Made by a program: the position numbers and the translations under genes. From positions 1-64,000 of IMG/VR virus record IMGVR_UViG_3300030116_007024: a DNA stretch of 64,000 bases, one strand, 5' to 3'. The DNA comes from a virus. This document shows, piece after piece, positions 16,236 through 43,603 of this stretch. The notes beneath the pieces are model-generated. The model searched no databases. It saw only the letters and a program-made list of their open reading frames with translations, and was not told the origin of the DNA. Each line of letters starts with the position of its first letter. Position 1 is the first letter of the stretch.

Positions 16236-16237
16236 TA

Positions 16238-19101: not shown

Positions 19102-19436
19102 GCAAAATTATATATGTAGACATTGATGGCACTATTTGTACTGAACGGCCCAATCATCCAAAATCAGCAGTAGACTACAAAGCCGCGAAACCTTTTAAAG
19201 AAAGAATTGATATTATCAATAAATTGTATGATGAAGGAAATGAAATTCATTATTGGACTGCACGAGGTTGTAGTACAGGAATTGATTGGACTGATCTTAC
19301 TAAAGGACAATTAGAAGAATGGGGTGCTAAGTATCACAAATTACACGTAGGTACTAAGCCACATTTTGACATTTATATTTGTGATAAGTCATTTCAAGCG
19401 GATATGTGGTTTAAGAACCAAACAATAATGACATGA
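19098..19436 (+). CDS. Small HAD-superfamily phosphatase (capsule-biosynthesis type)
   Basis: YVDIDGTI, WTARG, KPHFDIYICDK. Confidence 0.88.
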   Translation: MSKIIYVDIDGTICTERPNHPKSAVDYKAAKPFKERIDIINKLYDEGNEIHYWTARGCSTGIDWTDLTKGQLEEWGAKYHKLHVGTKPHFDIYICDKSFQADMWFKNQTIMT

Positions 19437-26733: not shown

Positions 26734-27796
26734 TGAAATTAAAGCAGTTCATTTAGAAGTTACACAAAGGTGTCAAGCATCTTGTCCTATGTGCGACAGA
26801 AATGAAAACGGTGGCATAGTTAATAGACATTTAACTAATGCTGAACTTAGTTTAGCAGATTGCAAACAAATATTCAAGCCTGAATTTATTGCAAATTTAG
26901 ATAGAATGTATATGTGTGGTAATCATGGTGATCCTATTGTTGCGGAAGATACATTAGAAATATTCAAATATTTTAGAGATAATAATCCAAACATGTGGCT
27001 TAGTATGAATACTAATGCAGGAGCAAAAGACAGCGAGTGGTGGACAGAGTTAGCAAAAATATATGGGCGTATGGGTTGTGTATTGTTTAGTGTAGACGGA
27101 TTAGAAGACACTAATCATTTATATAGACAAAACGTACAATGGCCCATAGTAATGAATAGTATGCAAGCATTTATTAATGCTGGAGGACGGGCTAGATGGG
27201 ATTATATTATATTTGAACACAACGAACATCAAGTAGAAGAAGCAGAAACACTATCAAAGTTAATGGGTTTTGAAAAGTTTCAAAAAAAGAAAACAGGGCG
27301 TTTTTATTCTACTAATAAGTTTAAAACAAAAGACGAACATCAAGCAAAAAATAGAAAAGGTAAAGATACACAAAAACTTGAACTGCCAAAAGAAGAAAAG
27401 AATAAAAATAAAGCATTAGATAAAGTTGCTAAAATAGAAGAAAAATACGGCAGTATGCATGAGTATCATGATAAAGTTAAAATTGATTGTAAAGTAGCAA
27501 AAGAAAAAAACATATACATATCTGCTGAAGGATTAATGTTGCCCTGTTGTTGGACTGCTGGGCGTATGTATAAGTGGTGGTTTGAAGATCCACGTGAAGA
27601 ACAAATATGGAATTACATACAAGATAAAGATGCTATTAACACTAAAATACACGGATTACAAAGTGTAATGGAAAACGGATTTATACAGAGTATACAAAAT
27701 AGTTGGGCATTACCAAATACAAAAGCAGGTAAATTAAAAGTATGTGCCGACAAGTGCGGAGTTGAATTTGATGCATTTAAAGAACAATATACATGA
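26720..27796 (+). CDS. Radical SAM protein with C-terminal Twitch/SPASM-like cysteines
   Basis: CQASCPMC, CGNHGDP, SVDGLEDTNHLYR, LPCCW...CADKC. Start moved to ATG 26720 by alignment with 4505. Confidence 0.93.
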   Translation: MYQYNEIKAVHLEVTQRCQASCPMCDRNENGGIVNRHLTNAELSLADCKQIFKPEFIANLDRMYMCGNHGDPIVAEDTLEIFKYFRDNNPNMWLSMNTNAGAKDSEWWTELAKIYGRMGCVLFSVDGLEDTNHLYRQNVQWPIVMNSMQAFINAGGRARWDYIIFEHNEHQVEEAETLSKLMGFEKFQKKKTGRFYSTNKFKTKDEHQAKNRKGKDTQKLELPKEEKNKNKALDKVAKIEEKYGSMHEYHDKVKIDCKVAKEKNIYISAEGLMLPCCWTAGRMYKWWFEDPREEQIWNYIQDKDAINTKIHGLQSVMENGFIQSIQNSWALPNTKAGKLKVCADKCGVEFDAFKEQYT

Positions 27797-28313
27797 ATAT
27801 TTTATATGTTACGCAGGAGGTTGGCATGGAGATTTTATACATGATTTATTAAGTTTTAAATATCATGGTGTACGTGAACATGGACTAATTGAAGACTGGA
27901 GGAAAACATATCCAAACCATATATACATAGTTCCGTATAGTGTAAAAAATAATCGTTACAGAGTTTTTAATTGGTGGGAAAAAATTGGCAGGCGTAAACA
28001 TAGTGAAACAAATTTAAAAGACTATTATAAAAATTGTATAGACGATACACATAAAAATCTTAGTCAGCCAGATGTATATCCGCTAGATATTGATTTATTT
28101 TTAGACGAAAGCAACATGTTATATGTTAATTGGTTCTTTAGCCAGTTTAATATAGTGTGGTCGGAAAGAATGGAGATGCGGTATGTACAATTTAAAAAAT
28201 ACGAGTATTTTATGAACGAATTAGATAATAATTTTTTAGGAGAAATTAATGACGTCGACTTTTTGCATCCTGCCGTGGATGCACATCGCAACAAATTCTA
28301 CAGGAAACCTTAG
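27771..28313 (+). CDS. Hypothetical protein, P-loop/sulfotransferase-like N-terminus
   Basis: CYAGGWHGDFI resembles YISGTAGDFF in 47917..48861. Start uncertain. Confidence 0.55.
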   Translation: MHLKNNIHEYFICYAGGWHGDFIHDLLSFKYHGVREHGLIEDWRKTYPNHIYIVPYSVKNNRYRVFNWWEKIGRRKHSETNLKDYYKNCIDDTHKNLSQPDVYPLDIDLFLDESNMLYVNWFFSQFNIVWSERMEMRYVQFKKYEYFMNELDNNFLGEINDVDFLHPAVDAHRNKFYRKP

Positions 28314-29421
28314 GGTTTGTTGTAATGCAGTACCTACAAAAAGTTATATCTATAAGTCTGATGGAAAGCCATATAAACTATTTAGAGATGATATTAATGA
28401 AGCATGGCATTCTGAATCATATAAAAGCATACGACAAGACTTTTTAAATGGAAATAAACCTGAAATATGCGAACGATGTTTTAGAGAAGAAGATGCAGGA
28501 TTAAAAAGTGCAAGGCAAAGTGCTAATGAACAATGGGGTACAGAATGCAGTATGACAACTACTCCTAAAATGGATATACGTTATGTTGATTTACGTCTAG
28601 GTAATTTGTGCAATTTAAAGTGCAGAATGTGCAATCCATATTCATCTAGTATATGGGCAAAAGAATGGAATAAAGTAGTTACAAAAGAAGAACAAATTTC
28701 ACAAGATGAAGTTACTAGACTTGCACAAATGGATTGGCCTACAAAGGATAAAACGTGGGATAATATAAAAGAAATAATGCCTAGTGTAGAAATGATATAT
28801 TTTACTGGAGGCGAACCTACATTAACATTGCAACAAATGTCATTATTAGAATATTGTATTGATAATAATTACACAAACGTTACATTAAAATACAATACTA
28901 ATTTAACTAACATACCAGAACGTATGTTAGACTTGTGGAAGAACTTTAAAAAAATTAAAGTTAACGCAAGTATAGATGCAACATACAGACTTAACAGATA
29001 TATACGTTATCCTAGTGACTTTGAAGAAATTGAAAATAATTTAGAAATACTAGGCAACCTTCCAAACGTAAATATACAAATACACACTACTGTTCAAATG
29101 TATAACATAATGAAATTGGACAGAATATTACAGTATTTTGCAGACTATGATCACTATTTAAATATATTAAACCATCCTGAATATTTAAACATTCGTGTAC
29201 TAAAGCAACGACATAAAGAGTTAGTAACAGATCGTTTAGAACGATCATGGAAAGCAGGAGTACAAAATGAAAAGATTAAAGGTATAATTAAATATATGCA
29301 AGAAGACTGGTCAGACAAATGGCCGGAATTTGTTGCCTACACAAAAAACGTTGATAAACAACGTAATGAAACCATTTTAGAACATATAGAGGAATTCAAT
29401 GAAGATTGCAATGACTGGTAA
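28249..29421 (+). CDS. Radical SAM protein with N-terminal Twitch-like domain
   Basis: FCILPW...RVCC...CERC; CNLKCRMC; TGGEP; YIRYPS. Confidence 0.94.
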   Translation: MTSTFCILPWMHIATNSTGNLRVCCNAVPTKSYIYKSDGKPYKLFRDDINEAWHSESYKSIRQDFLNGNKPEICERCFREEDAGLKSARQSANEQWGTECSMTTTPKMDIRYVDLRLGNLCNLKCRMCNPYSSSIWAKEWNKVVTKEEQISQDEVTRLAQMDWPTKDKTWDNIKEIMPSVEMIYFTGGEPTLTLQQMSLLEYCIDNNYTNVTLKYNTNLTNIPERMLDLWKNFKKIKVNASIDATYRLNRYIRYPSDFEEIENNLEILGNLPNVNIQIHTTVQMYNIMKLDRILQYFADYDHYLNILNHPEYLNIRVLKQRHKELVTDRLERSWKAGVQNEKIKGIIKYMQEDWSDKWPEFVAYTKNVDKQRNETILEHIEEFNEDCNDW

Positions 29422-29971
29422 TCCTGAATATGGATTAGCAAAATCATTTAAAAAAATAAGTCCTGAAACAGAATTTTTTAGTAGAGAAACTGGTTGGGAT
29501 TTTGGTAATATTTTAACACGAAAAAAATTAGCAGATCATTTAAATGCTGAAGGATTTAATGTGTTTATTAATAGTAGTGCTTTAAATAATTTTAATCAAT
29601 GTTTATTACTAGAACAAATCTGGGATAGATGGAAGTTAACAGAACGACCTAAACAAATTATTTGTATTGGAAGCACTATTGATAGAGTCTCAAAAGGAAG
29701 TGATTGGATTTATGGTACTGAAAAACATGCATTAAAACAAATGTGCAATGGACTTAGTTTATTAGGAGTATGGAGTGAAATACAATGTAAAGTCACATAC
29801 ATTAGTTTTGGCTCACTTCGCACTCCTAAAGTTACACAAAAACACCCTGATAGGCGACTTATGGATGTTAATAAAGCCGCTACATATATTAAATGGGTAT
29901 TAGATCAACCCCAAGACATAAGTTTAAATGAACTTAGTATAGACCCAAAGCAGATTTTAGCAGATGACTGA
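29399..29971 (+). CDS. Short-chain dehydrogenase/reductase-like protein (compact)
   Basis: KIAMTGNPEYGLA, FINSS, IGS, YGTEK (YxxxK). Confidence 0.75.
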   Translation: MKIAMTGNPEYGLAKSFKKISPETEFFSRETGWDFGNILTRKKLADHLNAEGFNVFINSSALNNFNQCLLLEQIWDRWKLTERPKQIICIGSTIDRVSKGSDWIYGTEKHALKQMCNGLSLLGVWSEIQCKVTYISFGSLRTPKVTQKHPDRRLMDVNKAATYIKWVLDQPQDISLNELSIDPKQILADD

Positions 29972-31361
29972 TACATTTTGTGCCTTACCTTGGCTACATT
30001 TAAGTACTAGACCCGATGGTGCAATGCGAGTTTGTTGTACTGCAAATGCGTCATCTGTAGGTGCAACAAATGAGAAACTGTACGGAGGTAAGCAAGGCGA
30101 ATTACGTACAGAAGATGGCACTCCAGCAAATTTAAATAATTCTGATTTTTTGTCCTCATGGAATAATACGTATATGAAAAATGTACGTAAGCAAATGATG
30201 AACGGGCAAGAACCTCCTAGTTGTCATAAGTGTTATAAAGAAGAACGTGCAGGACATAATTCTAAACGTATGTGGGAAACACGTTATTGGGCAGACTATG
30301 GATATACAAAAGAAAAGTTAATAGCAGAAACAAGTGTTGACGGAGAAATAGAACCTAAAGTACGTTATATTGATTTACGTTTAGGTACTAAGTGCCAATT
30401 GGCTTGTGTTATGTGTTCACCACACGATTCAAGTGGATGGGTTAAAGAATGGATAGACATACATAACGAATGGACACTACCTGAATTAAAAGAAATTAAT
30501 CAATGGCACGGTGGCGGTAAAGACGAATGGGGTGCAACATATAATTGGCATAAAGATAATCCTGTATTTTGGGAGCAACTATATAGTCAAATTCCACATA
30601 TGGAACAGTTATATTTTGCAGGTGGCGAAAGCACTATTATAGACGAGCATTATGAATTACTTGACAAAGTAATAGAAATGGGTTATAATGAAAAGATAGA
30701 ATTACGATATAATAGTAATGGCATAGAACTTCCTGATCGTTTATTAGAATTATGGACAAAATTTAGAAAAGTTAGATTTCATTATTCAGTAGATGCAATA
30801 GGCAAACAAAATGATTTTATACGTTACCCTAGCGAATGGAGTCATACTGAAAAACAATTTTGGCGTTTAAATAACGACACATCAAACAACGTGGAGGTAA
30901 CTGTTGCATGTGCAGTAAATGCACTCAACATATATTACATTCCTGATTTTTTAAAATGGAAACTTGAACAAGGTTTTACAAAAATTAATATGTGGCCATT
31001 TGGGGCAGGTGGTATTAATTATCATTTTGTATATTGGCCTGCTTACCTTAATGTTAAATCACTTCCTATTGGTTTTAAAGAACAATGTGAAGCAAAGTAT
31101 GAGGAATTTTATCCTTGGTGGGAAAAAAATTGGGAGAAAGGCGTTCCGTCTTGGCATAAAGGAAAAGTAACATACGATAAATGGCGAGAAGCAAGTTACG
31201 GTATTAAACGATTACAAGGAATGATTAAGTTTATGAAATCAGAAGATTGGTCTATTCGTGTACCGCAGTTTAAACAGTATATAGATTCCTTAGCAAAACA
31301 TAGAAAAATGCCATTTAAGGAATACTTTCCGGAGATGCATAGTGCCATCGCAGATCAATGA
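29964..31361 (+). CDS. Radical SAM protein with N-terminal Twitch-like domain
   Basis: FCALPW...RVCC...CHKC; CQLACVMC; AGGES; FIRYPSEW; EYFPEM. Confidence 0.94.
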   Translation: MTDTFCALPWLHLSTRPDGAMRVCCTANASSVGATNEKLYGGKQGELRTEDGTPANLNNSDFLSSWNNTYMKNVRKQMMNGQEPPSCHKCYKEERAGHNSKRMWETRYWADYGYTKEKLIAETSVDGEIEPKVRYIDLRLGTKCQLACVMCSPHDSSGWVKEWIDIHNEWTLPELKEINQWHGGGKDEWGATYNWHKDNPVFWEQLYSQIPHMEQLYFAGGESTIIDEHYELLDKVIEMGYNEKIELRYNSNGIELPDRLLELWTKFRKVRFHYSVDAIGKQNDFIRYPSEWSHTEKQFWRLNNDTSNNVEVTVACAVNALNIYYIPDFLKWKLEQGFTKINMWPFGAGGINYHFVYWPAYLNVKSLPIGFKEQCEAKYEEFYPWWEKNWEKGVPSWHKGKVTYDKWREASYGIKRLQGMIKFMKSEDWSIRVPQFKQYIDSLAKHRKMPFKEYFPEMHSAIADQ

Positions 31362-32475
31362 AACTATATGTATATTGCCATGGGTGCATCATTATATATC
31401 ACAAAATCATGATGTGCGTCCTTGTTGTACATCATGGGATTTAACGTTAGGCAATATAACTAAAAATACTTTATCATATATTGATAAAGATATTCCGATG
31501 CAAAAACTAAGACAAAAAATGCAAGATGGTATAAAGCCTAAAACATGTTTAGAATGTTTTCAACGTGAGAAAAATGGTAATAGAAGTCCACGCCAAGAAT
31601 TTAATCATCTATATAATGAAGAGCTTGAGGATATTTTAAATAATAAACCTGTAAAGAAAAAATATCTAGAAGTAAATTTTAGTAATTTATGTAATGCTAG
31701 ATGTAAATCTTGTTCTCCATTAAACAGTACACAATGGTATGAGACTGCTAGAAAATTAAAGGATTGGGAATATTATGATGATCTAGGAAAGTTACCACAC
31801 AATGTTGATTGGGATAACATAGATATTGATTGGCAAGAATTAGATTTAATAAAAATATTAGGTGGTGAGCCGTTTTTACATCCTGATAATGAAAAAATTA
31901 TACAACGTATTTTTGATAAAGGACAGCCTGAAAAATGTAGTTTAGAAGTGTTTACTAATGCAAGCATATTTCCAGATAATAATATGATTGAAGCATTAAA
32001 AAGATTTAAACGTGTTGAAATAAATTTAAGTATTGACGGACTAAGAGAAACATACGAATATATAAGAACTGGACTAAATTTTAATGAAGTATTAGAAGTA
32101 ATTGCAAAATGGAATGAAGTAGATATACCTAATAAACGATTAGGATTTCAAATGTTAGTGCAAGTTGATAATATTTTACAAGTAGCAGAATATGATAAAT
32201 TTTTTAAAGAATTTGTAAACTATAATGGTAACACAGAAAAAAGTTACATGCATTATAATATTTTAACTAATCCAGTATGGCTTCGTCCTAGGAATGCTTC
32301 TGATAATGATAAAGCAAAAGCGATTAAATATTTAGAAGCATATATGGAAATTGATGAAGGATTACAAAAAAGAGATTATGCTAAATTCAAAACAATTATA
32401 AAAGAATTACAACAACCTGCAGAAGATAGATATAAATTAGAACAATTTAATAAAGTATTCCATGGAACATCCTAA
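31342..32475 (+). CDS. Radical SAM protein with N-terminal Twitch-like domain
   Basis: ICILPW...RPCC...CLEC; CNARCKSC; LGGEP; SIDG...EYIR. Confidence 0.94.
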   Translation: MPSQINETICILPWVHHYISQNHDVRPCCTSWDLTLGNITKNTLSYIDKDIPMQKLRQKMQDGIKPKTCLECFQREKNGNRSPRQEFNHLYNEELEDILNNKPVKKKYLEVNFSNLCNARCKSCSPLNSTQWYETARKLKDWEYYDDLGKLPHNVDWDNIDIDWQELDLIKILGGEPFLHPDNEKIIQRIFDKGQPEKCSLEVFTNASIFPDNNMIEALKRFKRVEINLSIDGLRETYEYIRTGLNFNEVLEVIAKWNEVDIPNKRLGFQMLVQVDNILQVAEYDKFFKEFVNYNGNTEKSYMHYNILTNPVWLRPRNASDNDKAKAIKYLEAYMEIDEGLQKRDYAKFKTIIKELQQPAEDRYKLEQFNKVFHGTS

Positions 32476-33772
32476 ACCAGAAGATGGCAATATAGTAGCA
32501 AAACATTTTTGTGCATTGCCGTTTACACAATTTAGTACATTTAATCATGGACGACATAGACTATGTTGTATGGCACAAGAGCCCGAAGTTGATAACCCTA
32601 CAGATGATTTAGAAACTGTATGGAATGGCGATTATATGAAAAATGTACGTAAACGAATGCATGCCGGAGAAGCATTAAAAGAATGTAGGGATTGTTATGA
32701 TTTAGAACGTCAAGGCATAATGAGCGATAGGCAATGGGAAAATATCCAAAATAAGGATATAGTTGAAAAGGAAATTGCAACATGGGAACAAAACAATTAC
32801 AATATAGAGGCACCGATAATATACGATTTGCGTTTAGGCAACAGGTGCAATCTTCAATGCTCTATGTGCAGTGGCATACACAGCCACTTGGTACATGTAG
32901 AACGTTCAAAAATGGTAGCCCAAGGTAAAAACTTTTTTAGCGGACATCGTCCTTATGTATATGGCGAAGCATTAACTGGACAAACATATTCTAAAAAAGA
33001 TGCATTATTAGCAAGTTCAGTTGACTGGAGTTACATATTAAACAATACTGCTAATGTAAAACAAATAAAAATTATAGGCGGCGAACCTACTATTAGCGAA
33101 GATTTGTTTGAGTTAATGGACGCCTGTGTAGAACGTAATCATGCAAAAAATATTGAGTTACAATTTTTTACTAATGCCACAAACTTTACAGATACGTTTT
33201 TAGATAACTTAACAAAGTTTAAAGGTACTAAAATTACAACAAGTATAGATGGCTGGGGCGAAATGAATGATTATATTCGTTATCCTAGTAAGTGGGATCA
33301 TATATGGGAAAATTTTACTAAGTTAGTTGATGTAAGTAAAGAACATAAAAAAGTTAAAGTACGACTTAGTACTGTATCACAAATTACTAATATATGGCAT
33401 TTAAAAAAGTTTTACAAAAATTTATTTGAGTTCCAAGAAAGTACACCAGTAAGAATAGGTTTAAGTTCTAATCAATTAGTAGATCCAGATTATTATAATG
33501 TTAGATATGCTCCGCTGTTTATGAAAACGCTTGCAAGATCGGCATTAACAGAATTTTTAAATGATATTAAAAGTTCTTACTGGTATAATGAAACGTTTAA
33601 GGAACCTGTAGAAGATATTATTAAATGGATGGAGCCGGAAAATCATATTGAAAACGACGAAGTATTAAAAAAATATATCCATGTTACACAGGATTATGAT
33701 ACGTTTCGTAAAGTAGATATAAGAGAAGTATCACCTGCATTTGATTATATTAAATCATATTGCGGCTTGTAA
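32462..33772 (+). CDS. Radical SAM protein with N-terminal Twitch-like domain
   Basis: FCALPF...RLCC...CRDC; CNLQCSMC; IGGEP; YIRYPSKW. Confidence 0.94.
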   Translation: MEHPKPEDGNIVAKHFCALPFTQFSTFNHGRHRLCCMAQEPEVDNPTDDLETVWNGDYMKNVRKRMHAGEALKECRDCYDLERQGIMSDRQWENIQNKDIVEKEIATWEQNNYNIEAPIIYDLRLGNRCNLQCSMCSGIHSHLVHVERSKMVAQGKNFFSGHRPYVYGEALTGQTYSKKDALLASSVDWSYILNNTANVKQIKIIGGEPTISEDLFELMDACVERNHAKNIELQFFTNATNFTDTFLDNLTKFKGTKITTSIDGWGEMNDYIRYPSKWDHIWENFTKLVDVSKEHKKVKVRLSTVSQITNIWHLKKFYKNLFEFQESTPVRIGLSSNQLVDPDYYNVRYAPLFMKTLARSALTEFLNDIKSSYWYNETFKEPVEDIIKWMEPENHIENDEVLKKYIHVTQDYDTFRKVDIREVSPAFDYIKSYCGL

Positions 33773-34582
33773 TTTACTAACAAGTTCAGGTAATGTATTA
33801 CTAGTAGATTTCATTGTTTTTACATCAATATCATTTTCCCACATTTGACATTTTTCGCCCCACACAACAGAATGATTCATTACATTAGAATTAAATATCC
33901 AAATAGATTTAGGTGGAAATGTTACAAATGTTACTGGTAAACCAGCATAGTCATTTTCTCCGTTCCATATTACTTCGTTTCTTAATTCAAAAATAAAATC
34001 GTGTATGTTCATATCTTTATATCTTGTTTTATCTGCAACACGATCGAATAAAAGATTAATATGTTCACCTATTGCAAGTGTTCTAGGTTTATAACTAAGA
34101 TTAATTGACATTCGTAATTGATGTTCTGTGCCAGTATGATCACCATCAAGTAAATCTAAATGTTGCCTATTATATACAAGTGTATTATATCGATGACTTA
34201 AACATTCCATATCACCTTTATAATTAGGAAATAATTGTTTTTGAAACTCAATCCATGCTTGATGAGTACGCCTGTGCATTTTACGAAAAACATTTGTATC
34301 GTTTTCATCTAAATCTAAATCACGAAATAATCTATGACGTTCGGACCAATCTTCCTTTAATACTTCACGTGGAAACATTGGCGGTTCCCATCTGTTATTT
34401 TTAGTAGTATATGTAGGAATTTTATCCATCCAATAGTCGTAAGGAAAATCAGGAATGTTAACGCCATCTAAAACTATAAAATCATTACGTTCAAAAGGCT
34501 CAGTTAAGTCTTTTACTTCGTTAACTGTAATAATATTAAAGCCTCGATACTCCGGGGCAACTGCTAGTAATGTATTTTTCAT
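33755..34582 (-). CDS. Kdo-hydroxylase (KdoO)-like Fe(II)/2OG dioxygenase
   Basis: HxD (QHLD) followed by QLRMSINLSYKPR, then VTFPPKSIWIFNS..MNHSVVWG. This matches the KdoO layout as I recall it (LHVD...LRVFxN...PR...FPxGxxW...HA..G). Confidence 0.6.
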   Translation of the reverse strand: MKNTLLAVAPEYRGFNIITVNEVKDLTEPFERNDFIVLDGVNIPDFPYDYWMDKIPTYTTKNNRWEPPMFPREVLKEDWSERHRLFRDLDLDENDTNVFRKMHRRTHQAWIEFQKQLFPNYKGDMECLSHRYNTLVYNRQHLDLLDGDHTGTEHQLRMSINLSYKPRTLAIGEHINLLFDRVADKTRYKDMNIHDFIFELRNEVIWNGENDYAGLPVTFVTFPPKSIWIFNSNVMNHSVVWGEKCQMWENDIDVKTMKSTSNTLPELVSKLQAAI

Positions 34583-34586
34583 GATG

Positions 34587-34615
34587 ATAAATATTTGTGG
34601 TTCAACTCTATTTAT
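34587..34615. promoter_or_regulatory. Pair of opposed late-promoter-like ATAAATA boxes serving divergent genes
   Basis: ATAAATA on + at 34587-34593 and on - at 34609-34615, each about 30 nt upstream of an ATG in a 42-nt gap. Confidence 0.55.
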
Positions 34616-34624
34616 TAATCAATT

Positions 34625-35443
34625 ATGAAAGAATATTTTAAAGACGACAAACTTACTGTCGCCTGTGTTGGTACTCAGCATACATATGGCATGAGTTACC
34701 CAGACGGAGAGTACCCTTATGAAAAAACGTGGCCTGGTAAACTAGCAGAAAAGACAGGGTATAATGTTTTAAACTTTGGTGTTACAGGTTCGAGTATTAC
34801 TCCGTTTGGTGAACGTATACTAAGAATTCAAGATATGTATAGACCAGATGTATGGATACTAGAAATACCTATGGGCGAAAAAGTAACAATAGGATACGAA
34901 GAGCCTGATGAAATAGAGAAAGATAGTCAGTTATTCACACATACACGAGTACAAGGTCCAGATTGGGAATTAGGATCTAATAGTAAAGATTGTAGAATTA
35001 ATTTTGGGCGGGGCGAATTAGAAAGCCAAGAAGATATACAATATCTTCAAGAAGAAAAGTTTAATTTAATTACTAGTAAATGGAAATCAATAACACAAGA
35101 AGATTTGATGGGCTGGGCAAAAATATTTGCATGGCAAGTAGATAGGAATATGCATCATATAAGATACACACAAGAAGTATTCTGTATACAATGTATAATG
35201 GAATCTTTTGATAAACCATTTATGATGTTTCAATGGAATTGGAACATGTTTAAATCTCCATTTGTAGAATTATTAAATAAAGAATATTGGTTAGACAAAT
35301 CATATTCTGGTAATTTAAAACGAACACTAAAAAAAAGTAGGCCTGATTTTTGGGCAGATAGTCAACATCTAAACGAAAAGGGCATGGACTATATAGCAAC
35401 GCAAATTTATGACGATCTTGACAGAATTATGGCAAAAAAATAA
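34625..35443 (+). CDS. SGNH-fold protein with a non-canonical block I (GTQHTYG)
   Basis: CVGTQHTYG, TWPGKL, NFGVTGSS, DSQHLNEKG (DxxH). Confidence 0.75.
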   Translation: MKEYFKDDKLTVACVGTQHTYGMSYPDGEYPYEKTWPGKLAEKTGYNVLNFGVTGSSITPFGERILRIQDMYRPDVWILEIPMGEKVTIGYEEPDEIEKDSQLFTHTRVQGPDWELGSNSKDCRINFGRGELESQEDIQYLQEEKFNLITSKWKSITQEDLMGWAKIFAWQVDRNMHHIRYTQEVFCIQCIMESFDKPFMMFQWNWNMFKSPFVELLNKEYWLDKSYSGNLKRTLKKSRPDFWADSQHLNEKGMDYIATQIYDDLDRIMAKK

Positions 35444-36008
35444 AGTATACACAGAACCATTTAAACATGTAATTATTAATAATATTTTTCCCGAAGACAT
35501 TTTAAATGACATTTTAAAAAACTTGCCTAACCATAAGTTAGAACCAGTTATGTCGCACTACCCGTATGGCAAAGTATATGCTATGGGTGCAGATGATTGT
35601 GTTAGTAATAAATTTTGGTCAAATGTACACAGGTTTTTTAATAGTACTGATGTATTAGAATTTGTTGAAGATAAGTTTAATTTAGATTTTAAACTTAAAG
35701 AAGCAAATTTAAGTATACACTATGATTATGAAGGAGAACAATTAGGCCCTCATATTGATCAGTTATACACTTTAATAATTTTTTTAGATAAAATTAACAA
35801 TCCACAAGAATCCGGAACTGAATACTACATAAGACAACCCAGTAATTATGCAGATAATAAAATTGCTAAGTGGAGTAATTTTTCAGTGTTTAAAACAATA
35901 CCTGCAATTCAAAATACTGGACATTTATTTGCACCATCAGAAAATTCATGGCACGGATTTTATAATTTAAATGAAACAAGATCATGCTTAGTAATGAGGT
36001 TTAAATGA
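35409..36008 (+). CDS. Fe(II)/2-oxoglutarate dioxygenase
   Basis: EPFKHVIINNIF, PHID, SWHGF, TRSC. Confidence 0.85.
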   Translation: MTILTELWQKNKVYTEPFKHVIINNIFPEDILNDILKNLPNHKLEPVMSHYPYGKVYAMGADDCVSNKFWSNVHRFFNSTDVLEFVEDKFNLDFKLKEANLSIHYDYEGEQLGPHIDQLYTLIIFLDKINNPQESGTEYYIRQPSNYADNKIAKWSNFSVFKTIPAIQNTGHLFAPSENSWHGFYNLNETRSCLVMRFK

Positions 36009-37054
36009 AAACAAATTGTTACACAGAATGGAGTAAATTGCGTGAAGTTTTTGTAGGATCTACATATCCTGCAGATGCCTTTGATTACCATAAAGACCCT
36101 GAGTTTCGTGATAATATGAAACGTATATTAACCGAAACGCAAGAAGATTTAGATGCGTTAGCAGAAATGCTATCAAAAGAGTTTGATGTTACAGTACATA
36201 GGCCTGATACTACTCTTTTTAAAGTAGGACAAGAACACACTAATGGACATTTTAATTTTTCTTATCCTAATCATCCATTAATGCCTAGAGATACTGTTGG
36301 TGCATTTGGCGATACAATAGTGCAAACATATACAAATACAGATAGTAGATATTTTGAAAATAATTGTTGGTACAGTCATTGTAAAAATTATTTCGATCAA
36401 GGTAGCAAATGGATTAGTTTACCTGCACCACATATAATACCTGGAAAGCAATATAAAGAGGAAGGTGTTGCTCACCAAGTATTTCAGCATACTGCTAATT
36501 TTATTAAGTGTGGTACTGATATATTTTATAGTTTACCAGGCGATATTGATGTTAATAAAGGTAAAGGTACGTCAGCAGGTTTATTCTGGTTTCAACGACA
36601 TTTATCTAACTTTGAATTTACTGCGGTAAATGTTGGCGGGCATGTTGATGGAAAAATTGCTTTATTACGTCCAGGTTTATTAATGACATGGAATAAAAAT
36701 TGGGTACCTGAAAAGTTACAATCGTGGGAAATAATTGAAATAGAAGATAATTCAGATTTTCCTGAAGATTTTGTTAAAACAAAAAAGAAACGTTACTACG
36801 GAGACTATGTTAAAAAGTATCTTACTAATTGGATAGGATTTGCAGATGAATCTGTATTTGATGTAAATGTTTTAAGTGTAGACGAGCAACGTGTAATTGT
36901 TACAGGCAACGATCCTAAGATATTAAGGCAATTAGAAAGTTACGGACTTACACCTATATATTGGAAATTTAGACATCAATATTTTTGGGATGGTGGCATA
37001 CATTGTGTTACTGCTGATATGGTACGAGATGGAGAACCGGAAACATATTGCTAA
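36005..37054 (+). CDS. Amidinotransferase (glycine/inosamine-phosphate amidinotransferase family)
   Basis: TEWSKLREVFVG, MPRD, GHVDGKIALLRPG, DVNVLSVD, GGIHCVT (Asp-His-Cys triad). Confidence 0.92.
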   Translation: MKTNCYTEWSKLREVFVGSTYPADAFDYHKDPEFRDNMKRILTETQEDLDALAEMLSKEFDVTVHRPDTTLFKVGQEHTNGHFNFSYPNHPLMPRDTVGAFGDTIVQTYTNTDSRYFENNCWYSHCKNYFDQGSKWISLPAPHIIPGKQYKEEGVAHQVFQHTANFIKCGTDIFYSLPGDIDVNKGKGTSAGLFWFQRHLSNFEFTAVNVGGHVDGKIALLRPGLLMTWNKNWVPEKLQSWEIIEIEDNSDFPEDFVKTKKKRYYGDYVKKYLTNWIGFADESVFDVNVLSVDEQRVIVTGNDPKILRQLESYGLTPIYWKFRHQYFWDGGIHCVTADMVRDGEPETYC

Positions 37055-37712
37055 AGAAACTATATTAATTTTAGGACCACAAGGAATTGGCAATGAATGT
37101 ATGGCCAACATGCTTGATGCACATCCTGAATTACATGTTCCGGGTAGAGCAGGAGGACAATCTGAAACAGGCAAGTTTCATTTTGGTTACGGATATGAAA
37201 TAGGCGAAGTTAATTTACGATGGGAACCTCCAAGACTTCCAGCTGGCGAACATGCAAGACAAGTGCAACATGAAGTAGACATGGCTAGCCAACAAATTAT
37301 ACATAGAACTTCAGATCCACCATTAATTATAGGAAGCCATCAGTTTTGGCCTTATACCGCAGATATTTTTACAAACTTAAAAATTATTGTTATAATGCCT
37401 AGGTATTCATCAACAAACGAAAAACATTTACTAGAAAATTACATAGCAAAAAATTATGAAAGAGATAAAGACATATTAAGTGTACAAGGATTAATAACAG
37501 GATTTAGTCCATTTATGAATGGAATTAGAAAATTCTATGAAGATGCTTTACCGTTTTTACATTGTTATGATACTTGCATTGTAATGTTTGAAGATATTTT
37601 TTTAGGGCGACATTATTACGAATACAAGGCAATAGCTAACTTTTTAAACCTAGAAGAACGCCCGGACATATATTTTAAATATCACAAGTTGTTTACAAAT
37701 TATGGAGAATAA
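37029..37712 (+). CDS. P-loop/sulfotransferase-like hypothetical protein
   Basis: LILGPQGIGNECMANMLDAHPEL, IVMFEDIF, IANFLNL. Start moved to ATG 37029. Confidence 0.55.
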   Translation: MENRKHIAKETILILGPQGIGNECMANMLDAHPELHVPGRAGGQSETGKFHFGYGYEIGEVNLRWEPPRLPAGEHARQVQHEVDMASQQIIHRTSDPPLIIGSHQFWPYTADIFTNLKIIVIMPRYSSTNEKHLLENYIAKNYERDKDILSVQGLITGFSPFMNGIRKFYEDALPFLHCYDTCIVMFEDIFLGRHYYEYKAIANFLNLEERPDIYFKYHKLFTNYGE

Positions 37713-38910
37713 ACAATTTTATCATAACGAATCAATACCTTTATGTCTTGCTCCGTGGCATGCTCTAACTGTTAATTGGAACGGAAATATAAAGCCTGAT
37801 GTACATGCTAAAATGGTATTGGGCAATATTAAAGAAGATTCATTAGATGATATTTACAAGTCTAAAAAGTTTATTGATTTAACTAATAAGATGAAGCAAC
37901 GTGAGTGGCCCGAAGGCTGCCAGAGATGCAAAGATAAAGAAAGTATTAGTGGCAGAAGTAGACGTACATATTTTTGGGATACATTACCGTTAGACTTGCG
38001 AACAAACATATCATTTAAAAATAAGTTATCATATTTAGATATTAACACAAGCAATAAATGTAATTTAAAATGCATACATTGTAATGGCGAAGTCAGCACA
38101 AGTTGGATTAAGGATGAAAAAAAGTTAAACAGAGAACATGTACACCAAAAAGAAGTACGTTATCAAAAGTTAACAGAAGAAGATATTGATAGGTTATTTA
38201 ATTGTGATGCAATTAAAGGAATAGATACTATTGCATTACGTGGAGGAGAACCATTAGATGAGCCCAACAACATTTACATTATACAAAAGTTAGAGCAACT
38301 AGGTATTATAGGAAATGTAGTTTTAGATATATCTACTAATTTAACTATATTAAATGATAAAATACTTAATCTGTTTAGCAAGTTTAAACGTGTATTAATG
38401 TATGTTAGTTTAGAAGGTGTACACGAACGTTATGAGTATATACGTGGAGGTAAAAATTTTACATTTGCTGATTTAGAAAATAACATAAAAATAATTAAAC
38501 AACTTAATAATGTAGAAATTTGTTATGCAGTTACATTAATGAATTTGAACATTACTACTATACCCGAAATACATGAGTGGCTTACTACACAAGATTTATC
38601 ACGTTCATTAGTAAGTTTTTCTAATGTAGTTGCAAGACCAGAATATTTAAGGGCAGATATTTTACCAAATAACTTAAAAAAACAAACATTAGAAAAAATA
38701 CAAAATATACCTAAGGAATTAACGTGGCCTAAGGATAGTATTGATATTGGAGCAGGTGGATTATACGATACGGGCATGTCCGACATTATAAATATTTTAA
38801 ACAAAGATTCCGAAAACCCACCTTTGTTAAAACAGTTAACACAATATTTAAATAGTTTGGACAAATTACGTAATACAAACTGGAAACAAACATTCCCGGA
38901 GTTTACATGA
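37702..38910 (+). CDS. Radical SAM protein with a variant N-terminal Twitch-like domain
   Basis: CLAPW...KPDVH (CC replaced)...CQRC; CNLKCIHC; RGGEP; DKLRNTNWKQTFPEF. Confidence 0.94.
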   Translation: MENKQFYHNESIPLCLAPWHALTVNWNGNIKPDVHAKMVLGNIKEDSLDDIYKSKKFIDLTNKMKQREWPEGCQRCKDKESISGRSRRTYFWDTLPLDLRTNISFKNKLSYLDINTSNKCNLKCIHCNGEVSTSWIKDEKKLNREHVHQKEVRYQKLTEEDIDRLFNCDAIKGIDTIALRGGEPLDEPNNIYIIQKLEQLGIIGNVVLDISTNLTILNDKILNLFSKFKRVLMYVSLEGVHERYEYIRGGKNFTFADLENNIKIIKQLNNVEICYAVTLMNLNITTIPEIHEWLTTQDLSRSLVSFSNVVARPEYLRADILPNNLKKQTLEKIQNIPKELTWPKDSIDIGAGGLYDTGMSDIINILNKDSENPPLLKQLTQYLNSLDKLRNTNWKQTFPEFT

Positions 38911-39821
38911 AAACTAAAACAGGTGATCCTCAATTTAAATTTGAAAAAGGCGGAAATAGTGTATGGCATAATCCGTTTATGGAATTTATTGAAAAGGAAG
39001 AAATTTTACAAAAGTACCTCGATGGATTTCCAATGATTCAAGACGAATTCTTAGAATTATATCCTGAATGGATTAATACAAGTAAAAAGAATTCAGTCGT
39101 AGGAATGAATAATTTTAAGTATAAAGCAATTAGTGTAGGTTGCACACAAGCATTAGATTGGTTTCATTTATATGCGGCACAAAATGGTCTTATATTAAAA
39201 TTATTTAGAGGCGAATATCCATATAATAGAGATATCGGATTATTTAATTATCAAAAACAAATGATTAATGAATATGAAGAATTAAAAGAAGGCGATGCAC
39301 TTATATTAAGTTATCCATTTAGTGGTCATGGTAATAAACATGAACAATATGAATATGTAATGGAACATTGTACTAATTTAAACATTCCTGTATTAATAGA
39401 TTGTGCATGGTTAGGTAGTGCAAAGGATATGCATATTATGTTAGATTATGATTGCATATACGGTGTTGCATTTAGTTTGAGTAAATCATTAAGTTGCGGT
39501 AATTGGCGATCTGGTATGTTTTTAACAAATGACGAAAGATGTAGTATGGTATTATGTACAGAATGGAATCACCAAGTACATTTGAATACATGGATATGTT
39601 ATAATTTAATACAAAATTTTGGACCTGATTCATTGCAAGAAACATTTAATAAGTATCAACAAAAAGTTTGTAGAGATTATAAATTAATACCAACTAATAC
39701 TGTACACATTTGTTTATCATACGATGAAAAGTGGAAAGACTATCATAGAGATTTTAGTAAGTATTACAGAATTAATATTAGAAAGCCATTAAAACTTTAC
39801 AGAAAGCAAAAGATTGAATGA
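38907..39821 (+). CDS. PLP-dependent (fold I) aminotransferase-like protein
   Basis: GCTQALD, FRGEY, PVLIDCAW, FSLSKSL (PLP Lys), WRSG. Confidence 0.78.
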   Translation: MKTKTGDPQFKFEKGGNSVWHNPFMEFIEKEEILQKYLDGFPMIQDEFLELYPEWINTSKKNSVVGMNNFKYKAISVGCTQALDWFHLYAAQNGLILKLFRGEYPYNRDIGLFNYQKQMINEYEELKEGDALILSYPFSGHGNKHEQYEYVMEHCTNLNIPVLIDCAWLGSAKDMHIMLDYDCIYGVAFSLSKSLSCGNWRSGMFLTNDERCSMVLCTEWNHQVHLNTWICYNLIQNFGPDSLQETFNKYQQKVCRDYKLIPTNTVHICLSYDEKWKDYHRDFSKYYRINIRKPLKLYRKQKIE

Positions 39822-40927
39822 AATATGCTTGCCGTTATCCATTAAAGGCTGTTCATATATTTCCTAATACAAAGGACACTCCATGTTGTCGCTTTCATCA
39901 AATGTATCTTAAAGATAACGATGTAAGCACTATACAAAATTATGATAATATGTTTTCTTCTATAAGAAATAACATGTTAACATCACCAATACATGGTTGT
40001 GAAAAATGCTATGAGCAAGACGGACGAGGTATTGACAGTATGCGAGCAGAAAGTTATAGACTGTTTGATAACGATGATGTAGCATTAGAATGTATCGAAA
40101 TATCAGTAGGACGTTTATGTAATTTAGCATGTGTATCTTGTGGAATTGATTCTAGCACAACATGGGAAGAAGATTCTTATGTGTGGAACGATACACCAAC
40201 GCCAAAGGAAACAGAAGTACACATTCCTTTAAATAAAGACATATACAAAGATTTAAAAATTTTAAAAATTACTGGTGGTGAACCTTTTTTACATATTAAG
40301 TTTTTAAAGTTTCTTAAGTTTTTAGTAGATAGTGATTTGGCAAAAAATATTGAACTGGAAATTTTTACTAATACGACTTTTTATCCTACTAAGTTGGATG
40401 TTGATAATTTACTATGTTTTAAATCTGTTACTTTAAGTTGCAGTATTGATGGTATAGGCGAAGTTAATGAATTCCTACGATATCCAAGCAAATGGAAAGC
40501 AACAGAAGAAATATTTATTAAATGGAAAACATTAGCAGAAGCAAACAAAAATTTTAATATTAATGTTGCATGTACTGTTGGTTGGTTAAATCTTTTATAT
40601 GTTAAAGAATTATTACATTGGGCTAGAATACATCACGATACTCCAATGATTTTACAATTTATTGATGGTCCTTCGTGGCTTAGTATAAACTGTTTACCAT
40701 CAAATTACAAGAAAAAAATACGTTATGCTCTTGATTTACAATTTGATGAGTTCTATCATAAGCGACAAAAGTACGATAACATTTATAATCAATTAAAAGC
40801 AAAACTAGATTCGCCAGGTAATGTAGATGATTACGAACTTGGTGTTGAAAAATTACAAACATTAATGGCACATAGACAGCAAGACTTTAGTGCTTTTAAC
40901 AAGCATTTTGAATTGATTGCATTATGA
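39818..40927 (+). CDS. Radical SAM protein with N-terminal Twitch-like domain
   Basis: ACRYP...TPCC...CEKC; CNLACVSC; TGGEP; FLRYPSKW. Confidence 0.94.
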   Translation: MKYACRYPLKAVHIFPNTKDTPCCRFHQMYLKDNDVSTIQNYDNMFSSIRNNMLTSPIHGCEKCYEQDGRGIDSMRAESYRLFDNDDVALECIEISVGRLCNLACVSCGIDSSTTWEEDSYVWNDTPTPKETEVHIPLNKDIYKDLKILKITGGEPFLHIKFLKFLKFLVDSDLAKNIELEIFTNTTFYPTKLDVDNLLCFKSVTLSCSIDGIGEVNEFLRYPSKWKATEEIFIKWKTLAEANKNFNINVACTVGWLNLLYVKELLHWARIHHDTPMILQFIDGPSWLSINCLPSNYKKKIRYALDLQFDEFYHKRQKYDNIYNQLKAKLDSPGNVDDYELGVEKLQTLMAHRQQDFSAFNKHFELIAL

Positions 40928-42126
40928 AATCTATTTCACATTTAAAAGATTCAAATACATTTTGCTTATTACCTTTTATGCACACATATGGAAGTGCTAA
41001 TGGTAATCTTGTATTATGTTGTGAAGCACAAGAATATGAATGCGGAAAAGGTGGTAAAACACTTGACAGTAAATGGAATAGTAAAGAATATAAAGAAGTA
41101 CGTCAAGCCTTAGTAGAAGGTAGAAAGCACGAAGCATGCCATGTATGTTGGCACAACGAAGATAATGGAATAGAAAGCAATAGACAATTACACACAGAAC
41201 AACATTGGGATGAGTTTTCGCAATTAATAAAATTAAATGATGATTATTCAGTTAGTAATCAACCCGTATGGTTTGAATTAAAAATAGGAAACTTTTGTAA
41301 CCTTGCTTGTAGAATGTGTAGCACACATAGTAGTTATAAGCGAGCCCAAGATATTGATATTATAGGTAAGTATAGCGGATTTGATAATCAAGAAACAAAA
41401 CTTGTAACACCTGATAATTTGTTTTCAATACTGCAAAGTGATGTAGACTGGACTCAAGTAGAACGATTACAGTTTACAGGCGGTGAGCCTATAATAAATG
41501 AAATGCATTACGATTTATTGTATAGCATACCTAAAGAATATAGGCATTTAATTCGTTTGCGTTATGCAACAAATTTAACACATTTAAAGTATAAACAACA
41601 CGACTTAATAGATATATGGAGGCAATTTAAACATGTTAATGTTAAAGTCAGTATGGATGGCGCCGGCGATGTTTATAATTATATACGTATTGGTGCTAAT
41701 TTTGATACTGTCGCAAACAACATGAATAAATTAAAAAATGTTGATAACGTAGACATAGCAGTTGGTTTAACAATACAAGCATATAATGTATTTGCATTAC
41801 CTGAGTTTTTTGATTGGATAAATAGAACTGGAATTAACTTTAGTTTTGTTGGATCCTTTTTACTACAAACTCCAAAGTACCTTAATATATCAGTATTACC
41901 ACAACATTTAAAAGATCAAATTTGCGATAAACTTAGCAAGTATGATGGAAAAGTCAACATACATAGACACGATAATTTTGATACTATCATAGAGTATATG
42001 CAAAAAAATAATAACGAAAAACTCTATTGGAAGAAAACTATGCCATACACAAAAGATATGGAAAATAGACATCCAGATAGTATAACATTTAGTAACCTAC
42101 TTAAAACACATGGAATTAGTATATAA
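40924..42126 (+). CDS. Radical SAM protein with N-terminal Twitch-like domain
   Basis: FCLLPF...VLCC...CHVC; CNLACRMC; TGGEP; SMDG...NYIR. Confidence 0.94.
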   Translation: MKSISHLKDSNTFCLLPFMHTYGSANGNLVLCCEAQEYECGKGGKTLDSKWNSKEYKEVRQALVEGRKHEACHVCWHNEDNGIESNRQLHTEQHWDEFSQLIKLNDDYSVSNQPVWFELKIGNFCNLACRMCSTHSSYKRAQDIDIIGKYSGFDNQETKLVTPDNLFSILQSDVDWTQVERLQFTGGEPIINEMHYDLLYSIPKEYRHLIRLRYATNLTHLKYKQHDLIDIWRQFKHVNVKVSMDGAGDVYNYIRIGANFDTVANNMNKLKNVDNVDIAVGLTIQAYNVFALPEFFDWINRTGINFSFVGSFLLQTPKYLNISVLPQHLKDQICDKLSKYDGKVNIHRHDNFDTIIEYMQKNNNEKLYWKKTMPYTKDMENRHPDSITFSNLLKTHGISI

Positions 42127-43603
42127 CCCAATTGAAATTGGTATTAAAAATATGAACCATAAGTTTATAAACTTTTTGGTTTACCCTGATTGGAATTCAC
42201 GAAGGCACAATCGCAAACATTTGCCTTTATTTGAAAAATTATTAGAGCTAACACATTGGGGCTCCTCTGATATATTTTATGCCATGAATCATGCATTTCT
42301 ACCAGAAATGTGGATACCACAAGCCATAATACAAGCAAATAGATTAGGTATGGAAATAGTTAACATATTCTATATAGGTACTTCAATTACTGATAGTGAA
42401 GTAGATTTTATAGATAAAGTTACAGACTACCATGCAAGTGCAAAAAAAGAATTACTTACAACTAATGATAGATTTGTATTAGCAGGAGAAATAGATCAAA
42501 GTCAAATATATCCTCGATTTAAAAGAAGTTACATGTTAGTTAATATTGATAATTATATTCAACATGGTTGTCCTAGATTTATTATAGAACCTGAATTACA
42601 TTATACATATTGTTGTACACACTACAATGATTTTGAACGTAACTGTATTGAAGGATTATGGCCTGATACTGAAAAAATGGGCAAGCAAATACCTCCTCCG
42701 AGTCTAGAATGGAGTGCTCCTGCAATATCTACTGTTTTATCATGGGGAACACCGGTACTACAATTACCAGAAACAATAACAAAAGAACTTCATACTGTTC
42801 CGTGGGATGAAGATAGAGATTACTGGCAAGATATATATTGTAATAATCCACATAAGTTAAAAGAATTATGTTATGAATATGAAATGGATCCTCAGTACGA
42901 AAAAATTCGTAGTAAGCACGAACTTAATAAAATTATTCCACCAGAATACGGAGGTAAGGCTGTTCCGTTTATTTTAAACACAGAAGATTATATTGAAGAA
43001 AAAAGACTAGCAGATGATTATAAATTAACAAATGTAGTAACTATTGCGGCAGGATTTAAATTTATAAATTTAATAGATGTATTAGAACATACCGATGATT
43101 GTAAAATTATATTTTATGATTATAACATACAAACATTAAATCTTAAAAAACATATCATAAAAAATTGGGATGGTAAGAGTGATTTAAAAGAATTTTTAAG
43201 AAAAGACTATCCTAAATTAATTGAAGAATACTGGAATGATTACGCATGGTTTAGAGATCAACGTGATCTTCCAAAATTGCAATCACTATTTTTAAAATCT
43301 AGAGAATGGAATAATGAATATCATAACATTGATATTTTACATGATTTGGATAATTTTTTAAGTATAATACCAGACAAGGAAGGTACTGTTGTTTTTATAA
43401 GTAACATATTTGATTTTGTTCAAAATTGGATTTTAGGATCATTAGCATTACATGAAAAATGGATTAAATTTGTAAGACACTTACAAGCATATGAAAATGA
43501 TATATTAGTAATTGGAGCAGATCCTTTACGTAATACAATATTTGATTTTGCTAAAAATATCCACTCAATGAGACCTAGCAAGTTGCATACATGGGAGTCA
43601 TAA
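42110..43603 (+). CDS. Uncharacterised two-domain protein, local paralog family X
   Basis: LAGEID...MLVNIDNYIQHGCP; TIAAGF; IFYDYN; FISNIFD. Motifs are shared with 44357, 45259 and 62803. Confidence 0.7.
   Translation: MELVYNPIEIGIKNMNHKFINFLVYPDWNSRRHNRKHLPLFEKLLELTHWGSSDIFYAMNHAFLPEMWIPQAIIQANRLGMEIVNIFYIGTSITDSEVDFIDKVTDYHASAKKELLTTNDRFVLAGEIDQSQIYPRFKRSYMLVNIDNYIQHGCPRFIIEPELHYTYCCTHYNDFERNCIEGLWPDTEKMGKQIPPPSLEWSAPAISTVLSWGTPVLQLPETITKELHTVPWDEDRDYWQDIYCNNPHKLKELCYEYEMDPQYEKIRSKHELNKIIPPEYGGKAVPFILNTEDYIEEKRLADDYKLTNVVTIAAGFKFINLIDVLEHTDDCKIIFYDYNIQTLNLKKHIIKNWDGKSDLKEFLRKDYPKLIEEYWNDYAWFRDQRDLPKLQSLFLKSREWNNEYHNIDILHDLDNFLSIIPDKEGTVVFISNIFDFVQNWILGSLALHEKWIKFVRHLQAYENDILVIGADPLRNTIFDFAKNIHSMRPSKLHTWES

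Follow-up and report, generated by a model that had tools for sequence, protein, structure and literature searches.

What would a phage make with a long array of radical S-adenosylmethionine (SAM) enzymes, proteins that are costly and oxygen-sensitive? The question is raised by IMG/VR virus record IMGVR_UViG_3300030116_007024, of which positions 1 to 64,000 were analysed here (the window, a stretch of 64,000 nucleotides), and above all by the genes at 28249–42126. An earlier note on this DNA had described seven N-twitch radical SAM genes in that interval, surrounding a short-chain dehydrogenase/reductase (SDR), an amidinotransferase and a pyridoxal 5'-phosphate (PLP) enzyme. This composition was confirmed by matches to the NCBIfam family NF033640 (N_Twi_rSAM), by family-profile searches against the PDB, and by an AlphaFold2 (AF2) model compared with known structures in Foldseek. 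The gene set is a real, widespread, conserved and selected tailoring cluster, shared by phages and predatory Bdellovibrio-type bacteria, and its probable role is to attach a guanidino group to a sugar-type molecule.

The window takes up the first 64 kb of one 98,776-base contig, which has approximately 30% G+C and, according to CheckV, represents about 28% of a phage genome. Beyond the window, the contig carries genes for a T4-type DNA polymerase (phrog_262, E 9e-195), an exonuclease, an ATPase and an HNH endonuclease. The polymerase shares 44–47% identity with its counterparts in Atu_ph07, Phosso, XaC1 and Rak2-like Escherichia jumbo phages (340–490 kb), which marks the contig as a fragment of an uncultured T4-type jumbo myophage. 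The first 54 kb of the window form a near-continuous block of plus-strand genes with short overlaps, every product of which is predicted to be soluble, with zero predicted membrane spans. The interval at 28249–42126 is the middle of this ∼54-kb tailoring gene block. Comparison with the sister contig L003 gave dN/dS values of 0.06–0.48 for all 14 genes of the interval, and all 14 are under purifying selection.

The radical SAM array

The contig encodes approximately 15 radical SAM enzymes within 99 kb, nine of which are of the N-twitch type. Seven open reading frames (ORFs) of the interval, all on the plus strand, match NF033640 at 221–398 bits over model positions ∼1–396. The curated cut-off of this family is 170 bits, which none of the 14 control genomes reaches. 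The seven genes are found at 28249–29421 (373.6 bits, with CX3CX2C at residue 121), 29964–31361 (397.9 bits), 31342–32475 (268.8 bits), 32462–33772 (302.1 bits), 37702–38910 (263.3 bits, the copy that follows the amidinotransferase), 39818–40927 (221.2 bits) and 40924–42126 (325.7 bits), while a further pair lies near the start of the window at 1504–3012 and 2984–4504 (310 and 293 bits). Their Pfam domain order is unusual, with an N-terminal SPASM-type Cys-rich domain followed by the radical SAM core. All nine members carry the CX3CX2C motif along with conserved N-terminal Cys columns (C, (C)C and CxxC). The 37702 paralogue lacks one of these, the second twitch Cys, which the other eight retain.

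The N-twitch paralogues of the window are just 19–33% identical to one another, and about seven of the nine fall into tree clades that mix phage and bacterial copies. Taken together, these two observations show that the array is an ancient set of distinct enzymes and not the outcome of recent amplification. The most conserved paralogue is the one at 29964, with 62–65% identity in eight viral loci and 55% in the Bdellovibrionia locus L013; this type was found on no plasmid. The 28249 type has orthologues in phage loci (47–51% identity) and in Bdellovibrionia (45%). The copies at 39818 and 40924 each sit in a clade with three Bdellovibrionia copies (34–39% identity in the latter case), that at 32462 groups with a copy from the Bdellovibrionia genome G001, and that at 31342 stands alone in the tree. 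Homologues of the N-twitch enzymes are also present in cultured phages, namely the Ralstonia phage RsoM2USA and the Vibrio phages K566 and K567. No member of NF033640 with a tested function was found in the literature searched; the family appears here in arrays of seven to nine ancient paralogues.

The amidinotransferase

The amidinotransferase (36005–37054, plus strand), a protein of the pentein fold, was identified by full-length sequence matches in the PDB; Pfam PF02274 gave no match to this ORF at E 0.01. Homology to StrB1 (1bwd), HsvA (5wpi), SxtG (6u1r) and AGAT (1jdw) extends over the full length, with E-values of 1e-18 to 1e-41. When the single sequence was searched with phmmer, StrB1 was the best match (4.8e-22, 82 bits), followed by HsvA (2.5e-21, 79.6 bits), SxtG (7.5e-19) and AGAT (2e-18). 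The family profile, which matched solely amidinotransferases, instead placed HsvA first (145 bits), ahead of StrB1 (134), SxtG (129) and AGAT (121). The window protein belongs to a separate deep clade that is about equally distant from all four, and it shares approximately 25% identity with homologues from cultured phages.

Around 80 metagenomic relatives were found at 38% identity or above. Across 80 close relatives, no substitution is found at D96, H213, D215 or C334, the counterparts of D108, H227, D229 and C332 in StrB1; these positions comprise the catalytic Cys and His together with the two Asp residues that bind the guanidinium group. The triad Asp (D254 in AGAT, D179 in StrB1) is His162 in the window protein, and this position is occupied by His in 70 of the 80 relatives, by Asp in five and by Glu in five. 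A distant amidinotransferase in the Bdellovibrionota genome G053 (G053:C2:183591-185779; E 3e-33 to the clade profile) also adjoins an N-twitch radical SAM gene, so that such a pair is found beyond the close clade as well.

The likeness to StrB1 bears on an aminocyclitol pathway of the streptidine or 2-deoxystreptamine kind, the label that the earlier note had given to the cluster. A cyclitol would be oxidised by a radical SAM dehydrogenase like BtrN, transaminated, and then amidinated as in streptomycin biosynthesis. Such a pathway fits the rank of StrB1 in the single-sequence search, its equal length (348 aa, against 349 aa in the window protein), and the co-occurrence of a twitch radical SAM enzyme, a PLP enzyme and an amidinotransferase. 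However, the 98.8-kb contig contains no DHQS-like cyclase (PF01761), inositol-1-P synthase (PF01658) or DegT/StsC-type aminotransferase (PF01041), where the PF01761 and PF01658 searches were made at E up to 0.01, found matches in control genomes, and covered the ∼28% of the genome held by the contig. Furthermore, the family profile ranks HsvA above StrB1, with SxtG and AGAT close behind, the PLP enzyme is structurally grouped with amino-acid aminotransferases (see below), and the twitch domain is N-terminal here whereas it is C-terminal in BtrN. We consider this pathway very unlikely, and neither the aminocyclitol label nor a likeness to BtrN is supported.

The PLP enzyme and the SDR

The gene at 38907–39821 (plus strand) encodes a short fold-type-I PLP enzyme resembling class I/II aminotransferases, as judged from its AF2 model, Foldseek and Pfam. 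The model (pLDDT 85, pTM 0.86) had at least 500 Foldseek matches at E up to 1e-3, and all of the matches listed were PLP proteins of fold type I. VIA-align gave Z scores of 19–21 over 276–289 of the 304 residues. The Pfam Aminotran_1_2 match is barely above its cut-off (20.1 vs 19.7 bits). Both K193 (in FSLSK), the Schiff-base Lys, and D165 (in DCAW), the Asp that pairs with the pyridine nitrogen, are invariant in nine homologues.

All 50 of the best structural neighbours of the PLP enzyme are amino-acid aminotransferases or lyases, which would agree with an amino-acid or peptide product. The product might be a guanidino amino acid in free form, or else a peptide or protein of ribosomal origin (e.g., a virion protein) in which the radical SAM enzymes would crosslink or epimerise residues, Asp/Asn hydroxylases would hydroxylate them, and the amidinotransferase would convert Lys or Orn side chains. 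Hydroxylases of the PF05118 family and SPASM/twitch radical SAM enzymes are frequent peptide modifiers, the secondary NCBIfam matches of the array are to PapB, mycofactocin and WgkB maturases, and for characterised amidinotransferases such as AGAT and HsvA the acceptors are mostly amino acids or polyamines. Despite this, no PqqD/RRE domain was detected in the contig (PF05402, E up to 0.1), no free precursor-like small ORF was found inside the packed interval, no protease or exporter was seen, and every island protein is predicted to be soluble. The KdoO-like enzyme and the sugar-phosphate/nucleotidyl cassette, both described below, also point to sugars instead. A peptide or amino-acid product is therefore one that we regard as unlikely.

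The SDR-like oxidoreductase (29399–29971, plus strand) is a minimal one of 190 aa, approximately 60 residues shorter than classical SDRs, and was assigned from its family profile. Its Pfam score stays below threshold (18 vs 27 bits). The profile, built from 16 homologues, matched SDRs only in the PDB (best E 1.1e-6), and G7 and G12 (TG-x4-G), N58, S92 and Y105-x3-K109 are invariant in the 16. Among the loci compared, this gene is kept only in the near-identical contig L003 and lies outside the conserved core.

Conservation in phages and Bdellovibrionia

Nine other viral contigs carry the amidinotransferase, one of which (L003) is syntenic with the window throughout. The remaining eight share a core that consists of two unknown proteins, the 26639-, 29964- and 28249-type radical SAM enzymes, the amidinotransferase and the 37702-type radical SAM enzyme, and in three of these eight (L004–L006) the PLP enzyme follows. 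The 26639 gene (26639–27796, plus strand; Pfam Radical_SAM, E 2e-4) is a non-twitch member of this core that stands outside the interval, and its type shows 58–61% identity in all viral loci and 33–45% in Bdellovibrionia. The 37702-type gene is directly downstream of the amidinotransferase gene in L004–L012, L014, L016 and L017, while the full trio of PLP enzyme, amidinotransferase and 37702-type radical SAM enzyme is adjacent in the viral loci L003–L006 and in the Bdellovibrionia loci L012–L017.

In metagenome-assembled genomes (MAGs) of Bdellovibrionia, the amidinotransferase family is present at 39–47% identity, in one case on a contig of 917 kb. The trio is surrounded in these bacteria by many N-twitch radical SAM genes, two proteins of the Asp/Asn-hydroxylase family, a KdoO-like protein and a relative of the protein encoded at 42110–43603. 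The genome with the 917-kb contig holds approximately 20 N_Twi_rSAM genes above the cut-off, and a single 30-kb stretch contains 13 of these. As the same gene set is found in predatory bacteria, it represents a portable pathway and not viral junk. The radical SAM family was found in 14 of the 81 Bdellovibrionota genomes sampled, but a close amidinotransferase in just one. Since most of these arrays are without it, amidination appears to form an optional branch within a larger system of radical SAM arrays.

One further locus, L021 (PAAV01000055.1, 27% G+C), comes from a MAG labelled as ‘Chloroflexota’. It has the phage-type gene set, including a 29964-type radical SAM enzyme at 50% identity and an amidinotransferase at 38%, and may be a viral contig that was binned with a bacterium.

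The bacterial loci also bear on hypermodification of phage DNA or RNA bases, in which a base carrying an amino or guanidino group would be assembled by the radical SAM, PLP and transferase enzymes. The source of the window is a phage, and enzymes of the radical SAM and PLP classes participate in phage pathways of thymidine hypermodification. A putative QueC-like gene near 62–64 kb, labelled so in the earlier note, would also fit. Nevertheless, the contig has no thymidylate-synthase-like hydroxymethylase (PF00303) and no TGT/DpdA (PF01702), and the same gene set occurs in Bdellovibrionia chromosomes among sugar-activating genes. We give this explanation hardly any credence.

The sugar-type context

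Four ORFs of the interval were missing from the gene list of the earlier note (33755–34582, 34625–35443, 35409–36008 and 36990–37712), and the first of these, on the minus strand, is a predicted Fe(II)/2-oxoglutarate (2OG) dioxygenase. Its best match by both profile and structure is KdoO, the 3-hydroxylase of 3-deoxy-D-manno-oct-2-ulosonic acid (Kdo; 5yka, 6a2e), a protein of similar size. KdoO was the sole meaningful PDB match of the family profile (E 0.024), with the HxD...H iron triad aligned, and it accounted for the top five Foldseek matches of the AF2 model (E 4e-10, TM 0.64–0.66), whereas the next fold followed at E 1e-4 and TM 0.43. H141, D143 and H237 are invariant. On the other hand, identity to KdoO is just ∼16%, Pfam detects no domain, and the model is of moderate confidence (pLDDT 64).

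Upstream of the interval, at 15030–20926, Pfam matches reveal a sugar-activation cassette. It comprises proteins of the UDP-Glc/GDP-Man dehydrogenase and ribulose-phosphate 3-epimerase (Rpe) families, a SnoaL-like protein, a nucleotidyltransferase with a kinase-like C-terminus, SIS and HAD proteins and, finally, a NodU/CmcH-type carbamoyltransferase. Sugar-type genes also accompany arrays elsewhere, in that an independent N-twitch array in the Bdellovibrionota genome G027 includes genes for a kinase, a nucleotidyltransferase and SGNH proteins, and a UDPGP-type gene stands at the edge of the array in the Bdellovibrionia genome G001. Further hydroxylation capacity is suggested by two proteins of the Asp/Asn beta-hydroxylase family (PF05118), both predicted to be soluble. 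One is encoded at 43591–44373 (plus strand; E 2.8e-17) and has Bdellovibrionia homologues, and the second is encoded at 50625–51179.

These oxygenases could also be read as tools for remodelling the inner core or lipid A of lipopolysaccharide (LPS), that of the host during infection and their own in the Bdellovibrionia. Kdo-lipid A would then be the substrate of the KdoO-like and LpxO-family hydroxylases, with amino or guanidino groups supplied by the remaining enzymes. In favour of this, the 33755–34582 product is structurally closest to KdoO, and LpxO belongs to the PF05118 family. Related phage modules also contain fitting genes, namely a PAP2 phosphatase in that of the Campylobacter phage CP220, and KdsA and KdsB beside the amidinotransferase of the cyanophage S-SCSM2R. 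Yet LpxO and lipid A phosphatases reside in the membrane, and the 54-kb island encodes no membrane protein; neither KdsA nor KdsB is encoded in the contig; and the identity to KdoO is low, as given above. Remodelling of LPS thus appears quite unlikely to us.

Proposed chemistry

The explanation that best accommodates these observations is tailoring of a nucleoside diphosphate (NDP)-activated sugar or sugar acid from hydroxyl to ketone to amine to guanidine. We infer every step of it, and hold it tentatively, at a little short of an even chance. In the first step, a radical SAM enzyme (or the SDR) would oxidise a hydroxyl group to a ketone, which the fold-type-I PLP enzyme would turn into an amine. 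The amidinotransferase would then take up an amidino group on Cys334, with L-arginine as the probable donor, and transfer it to the amine, which would thereby become a guanidino group. Hydroxyls could be added by the 2OG oxygenases of the KdoO-like and Asp/Asn-hydroxylase-like kinds. Because other phages and Bdellovibrionia hold separate orthologues of each N-twitch paralogue, each paralogue most likely carries out a different C-H-activating step on one shared scaffold, with dehydrogenation, epimerisation and dehydration as candidate reactions. The likeliest scaffold would be an NDP-activated sugar or a 2-keto-3-deoxy sugar acid, and the final target may be the surface of the virion or of the host.

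That the radical SAM enzyme, PLP enzyme and amidinotransferase stay adjacent fits a chain of oxidation, transamination and amidination. The logic of BtrN, BtrS and StrB1 likewise combines a twitch radical SAM enzyme, a PLP aminotransferase and an amidinotransferase, and would allow the same conversion of hydroxyl to guanidine. It differs from the present set in that the twitch domain is N-terminal here, the PLP enzyme falls outside the DegT/StsC type, and no cyclitol synthase was found in the contig. The same three-step logic had been put forward in the earlier note, and it holds for the trio but less well for the SDR, given the position of the latter outside the conserved core. Similarly, its suggestion of guanidinylated or carbamoylated amino-sugars stands in so far as guanidino chemistry is plausible and the context is sugar-type, while the attached aminocyclitol label does not.

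Several points weigh against tailoring of a sugar or sugar acid. The nearest structures of the PLP enzyme all act on alpha-amino or alpha-keto acids, a likeness that is qualified by the fact that open-chain ulosonic acids are themselves alpha-keto acids. With the triad Asp of characterised amidinotransferases replaced by His, the activity or chemistry of the His-variant enzyme may differ. Most N-twitch arrays in the sampled Bdellovibrionota are without this amidinotransferase. Asp/Asn hydroxylases and SPASM/twitch radical SAM enzymes often act on peptides. Among the genes of the 98.8-kb contig, no KdsA/KdsB (PF00793, PF02348) or DegT-type (PF01041) enzyme was detected, and no glycosyltransferase was recognised (GT2, PF00535, no match), where it should be noted that the contig covers just ∼28% of the phage genome. 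The GT10-like glycosyltransferases that had been proposed at 5664–12699 were likewise undetected by Pfam, which gave only a marginal sulfotransferase match at 9754–10584 in that region. A dedicated search with PF00852 (GT10) found no match in the contig, but none in any control genome either, and is uninformative.

A more specific version of sugar-acid tailoring can be envisaged, as a widespread system common to marine jumbo phages and Bdellovibrionia, in which the N-twitch paralogues would edit an activated sugar acid stepwise and the trio would add the guanidino group, giving a new cationic glycan residue on the virion or host surface. We consider this version possible but doubtful. If true, it would give a first function to NF033640 as well as to the His-variant amidinotransferase clade.

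Comparison with known phage modules

The combination of enzymes had been described as unusual for a virus, which is overstated, as modules of radical SAM and amidinotransferase genes are present in Campylobacter phages and in cyanophage S-SCSM2R. Timms et al. (2010; PMC2853527) reported five radical SAM genes and a ‘glycine amidinotransferase’ in the phages CP220 and CPt10, as an interchangeable module. The CP220 module resembles that of the window in belonging to a T4-like phage, with about five radical SAM genes around the amidinotransferase and one of them directly after it. However, the CP220 amidinotransferase is just 22–27% identical to that of the window, and its radical SAM enzymes resemble the non-twitch ones of the window (those at 4505, 26639 and 48858) and not the N-twitch type. 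The CP220 module is also without a PLP enzyme, and its amidinotransferase adjoins two GT-A proteins as well as the PAP2 phosphatase. In S-SCSM2R, where the amidinotransferase adjoins KdsA and KdsB, such genes were called ‘antibiotic synthesis genes’ (PMC12801897).

Other reports concern the radical SAM genes themselves. A T4-like marine environmental genome with 12 of them was described by Nishimura et al. (2017; PMC5332604), and Zaragoza-Solas et al. (2020; PMC7029224) found radical SAM cassettes in the host recognition clusters of pelagimyophages, to all of which the Asp/Asn beta-hydroxylase family (PF05118) is listed as core; in both papers the radical SAM genes are listed without further analysis. 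The host recognition clusters and hypervariable islands of marine T4-like myophages thus share with the window their radical SAM cassettes, Asp/Asn beta-hydroxylases and sugar-handling genes. They differ in that the polymerase of the contig groups with Rak2/Atu_ph07-like jumbo phages and that no tail-fibre gene was identified in the contig. None of these four studies (PMC2853527, PMC5332604, PMC7029224, PMC12801897) tested a function of such radical SAM modules.

For a phage, nine N-twitch copies and some 15 radical SAM enzymes in 99 kb amount to a heavy investment in uncharacterised chemistry. Working out the pathway would give a first function to the curated NF033640 family, and would account for the radical SAM cassettes reported since 2010 from islands of marine T4-like phages. 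New guanidino-sugar chemistry, or a new phage route to alter virion or host surfaces, might also come to light.

Other genes of the block

Beyond the N-twitch members, weaker radical SAM genes start at 4505, 13247, 26639, 48858 and 59335 of the window and at 80376 of the genome. As for the three remaining ORFs that had gone unlisted in the interval, the one at 34625–35443 (plus strand) has a weak SGNH/GDSL resemblance (Pfam Lipase_GDSL_2, E 0.006, below threshold; dN/dS 0.12). Its neighbour at 35409–36008 (plus strand) had no Pfam, NCBIfam or PDB match; an HxD...H pattern, with the motifs GPHID and SWHG read from the sequence by eye, hints at a 2OG-oxygenase-like protein. The 240-aa protein encoded at 36990–37712 (plus strand; dN/dS 0.48) has a homologue only in L003, and no match in Pfam, NCBIfam or PDB.

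Directly after the array, 42110–43603 (plus strand) encodes a protein of 497 aa with homologues in the Bdellovibrionia clusters. A PDB sequence search with it was empty, and the ESM Atlas returned viral hypothetical clusters only. The Bdellovibrionia relative is longer (678 aa) and has a sub-threshold match to 2OG-FeII_Oxy (E 0.001, 19.8 vs 23 bits).

In most related loci (L007–L012, L019), the gene directly upstream of the amidinotransferase encodes a member of a 170–190-aa family in which the motifs CP[FY]A and YYxxWxxxYY are invariant. The member in this genome is found 50 kb away in the replication region, at L002:6097-6615 (genome 87097–87615, minus strand). The family had no Pfam or PDB match, and the ESM Atlas search with a 188-aa member returned viral hypothetical clusters only. 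Kinship with gp085 of CP220 or with the 35409–36008 product was considered and rejected, as the proteins are unrelated. Similarly, the 605-aa ORFs at 23704 and 45259 were considered as paralogues and found not to be paralogous.

PHROGs gave no match for ten unknown neighbour genes, and promoter-like and terminator-like sites were no more frequent than in shuffled sequence. Finally, L003 has an extra ORF of 231 aa (L003:4643-5338) between its 29964-type and 31342-type radical SAM genes which the window does not, and cassettes have therefore been gained or lost inside the array.

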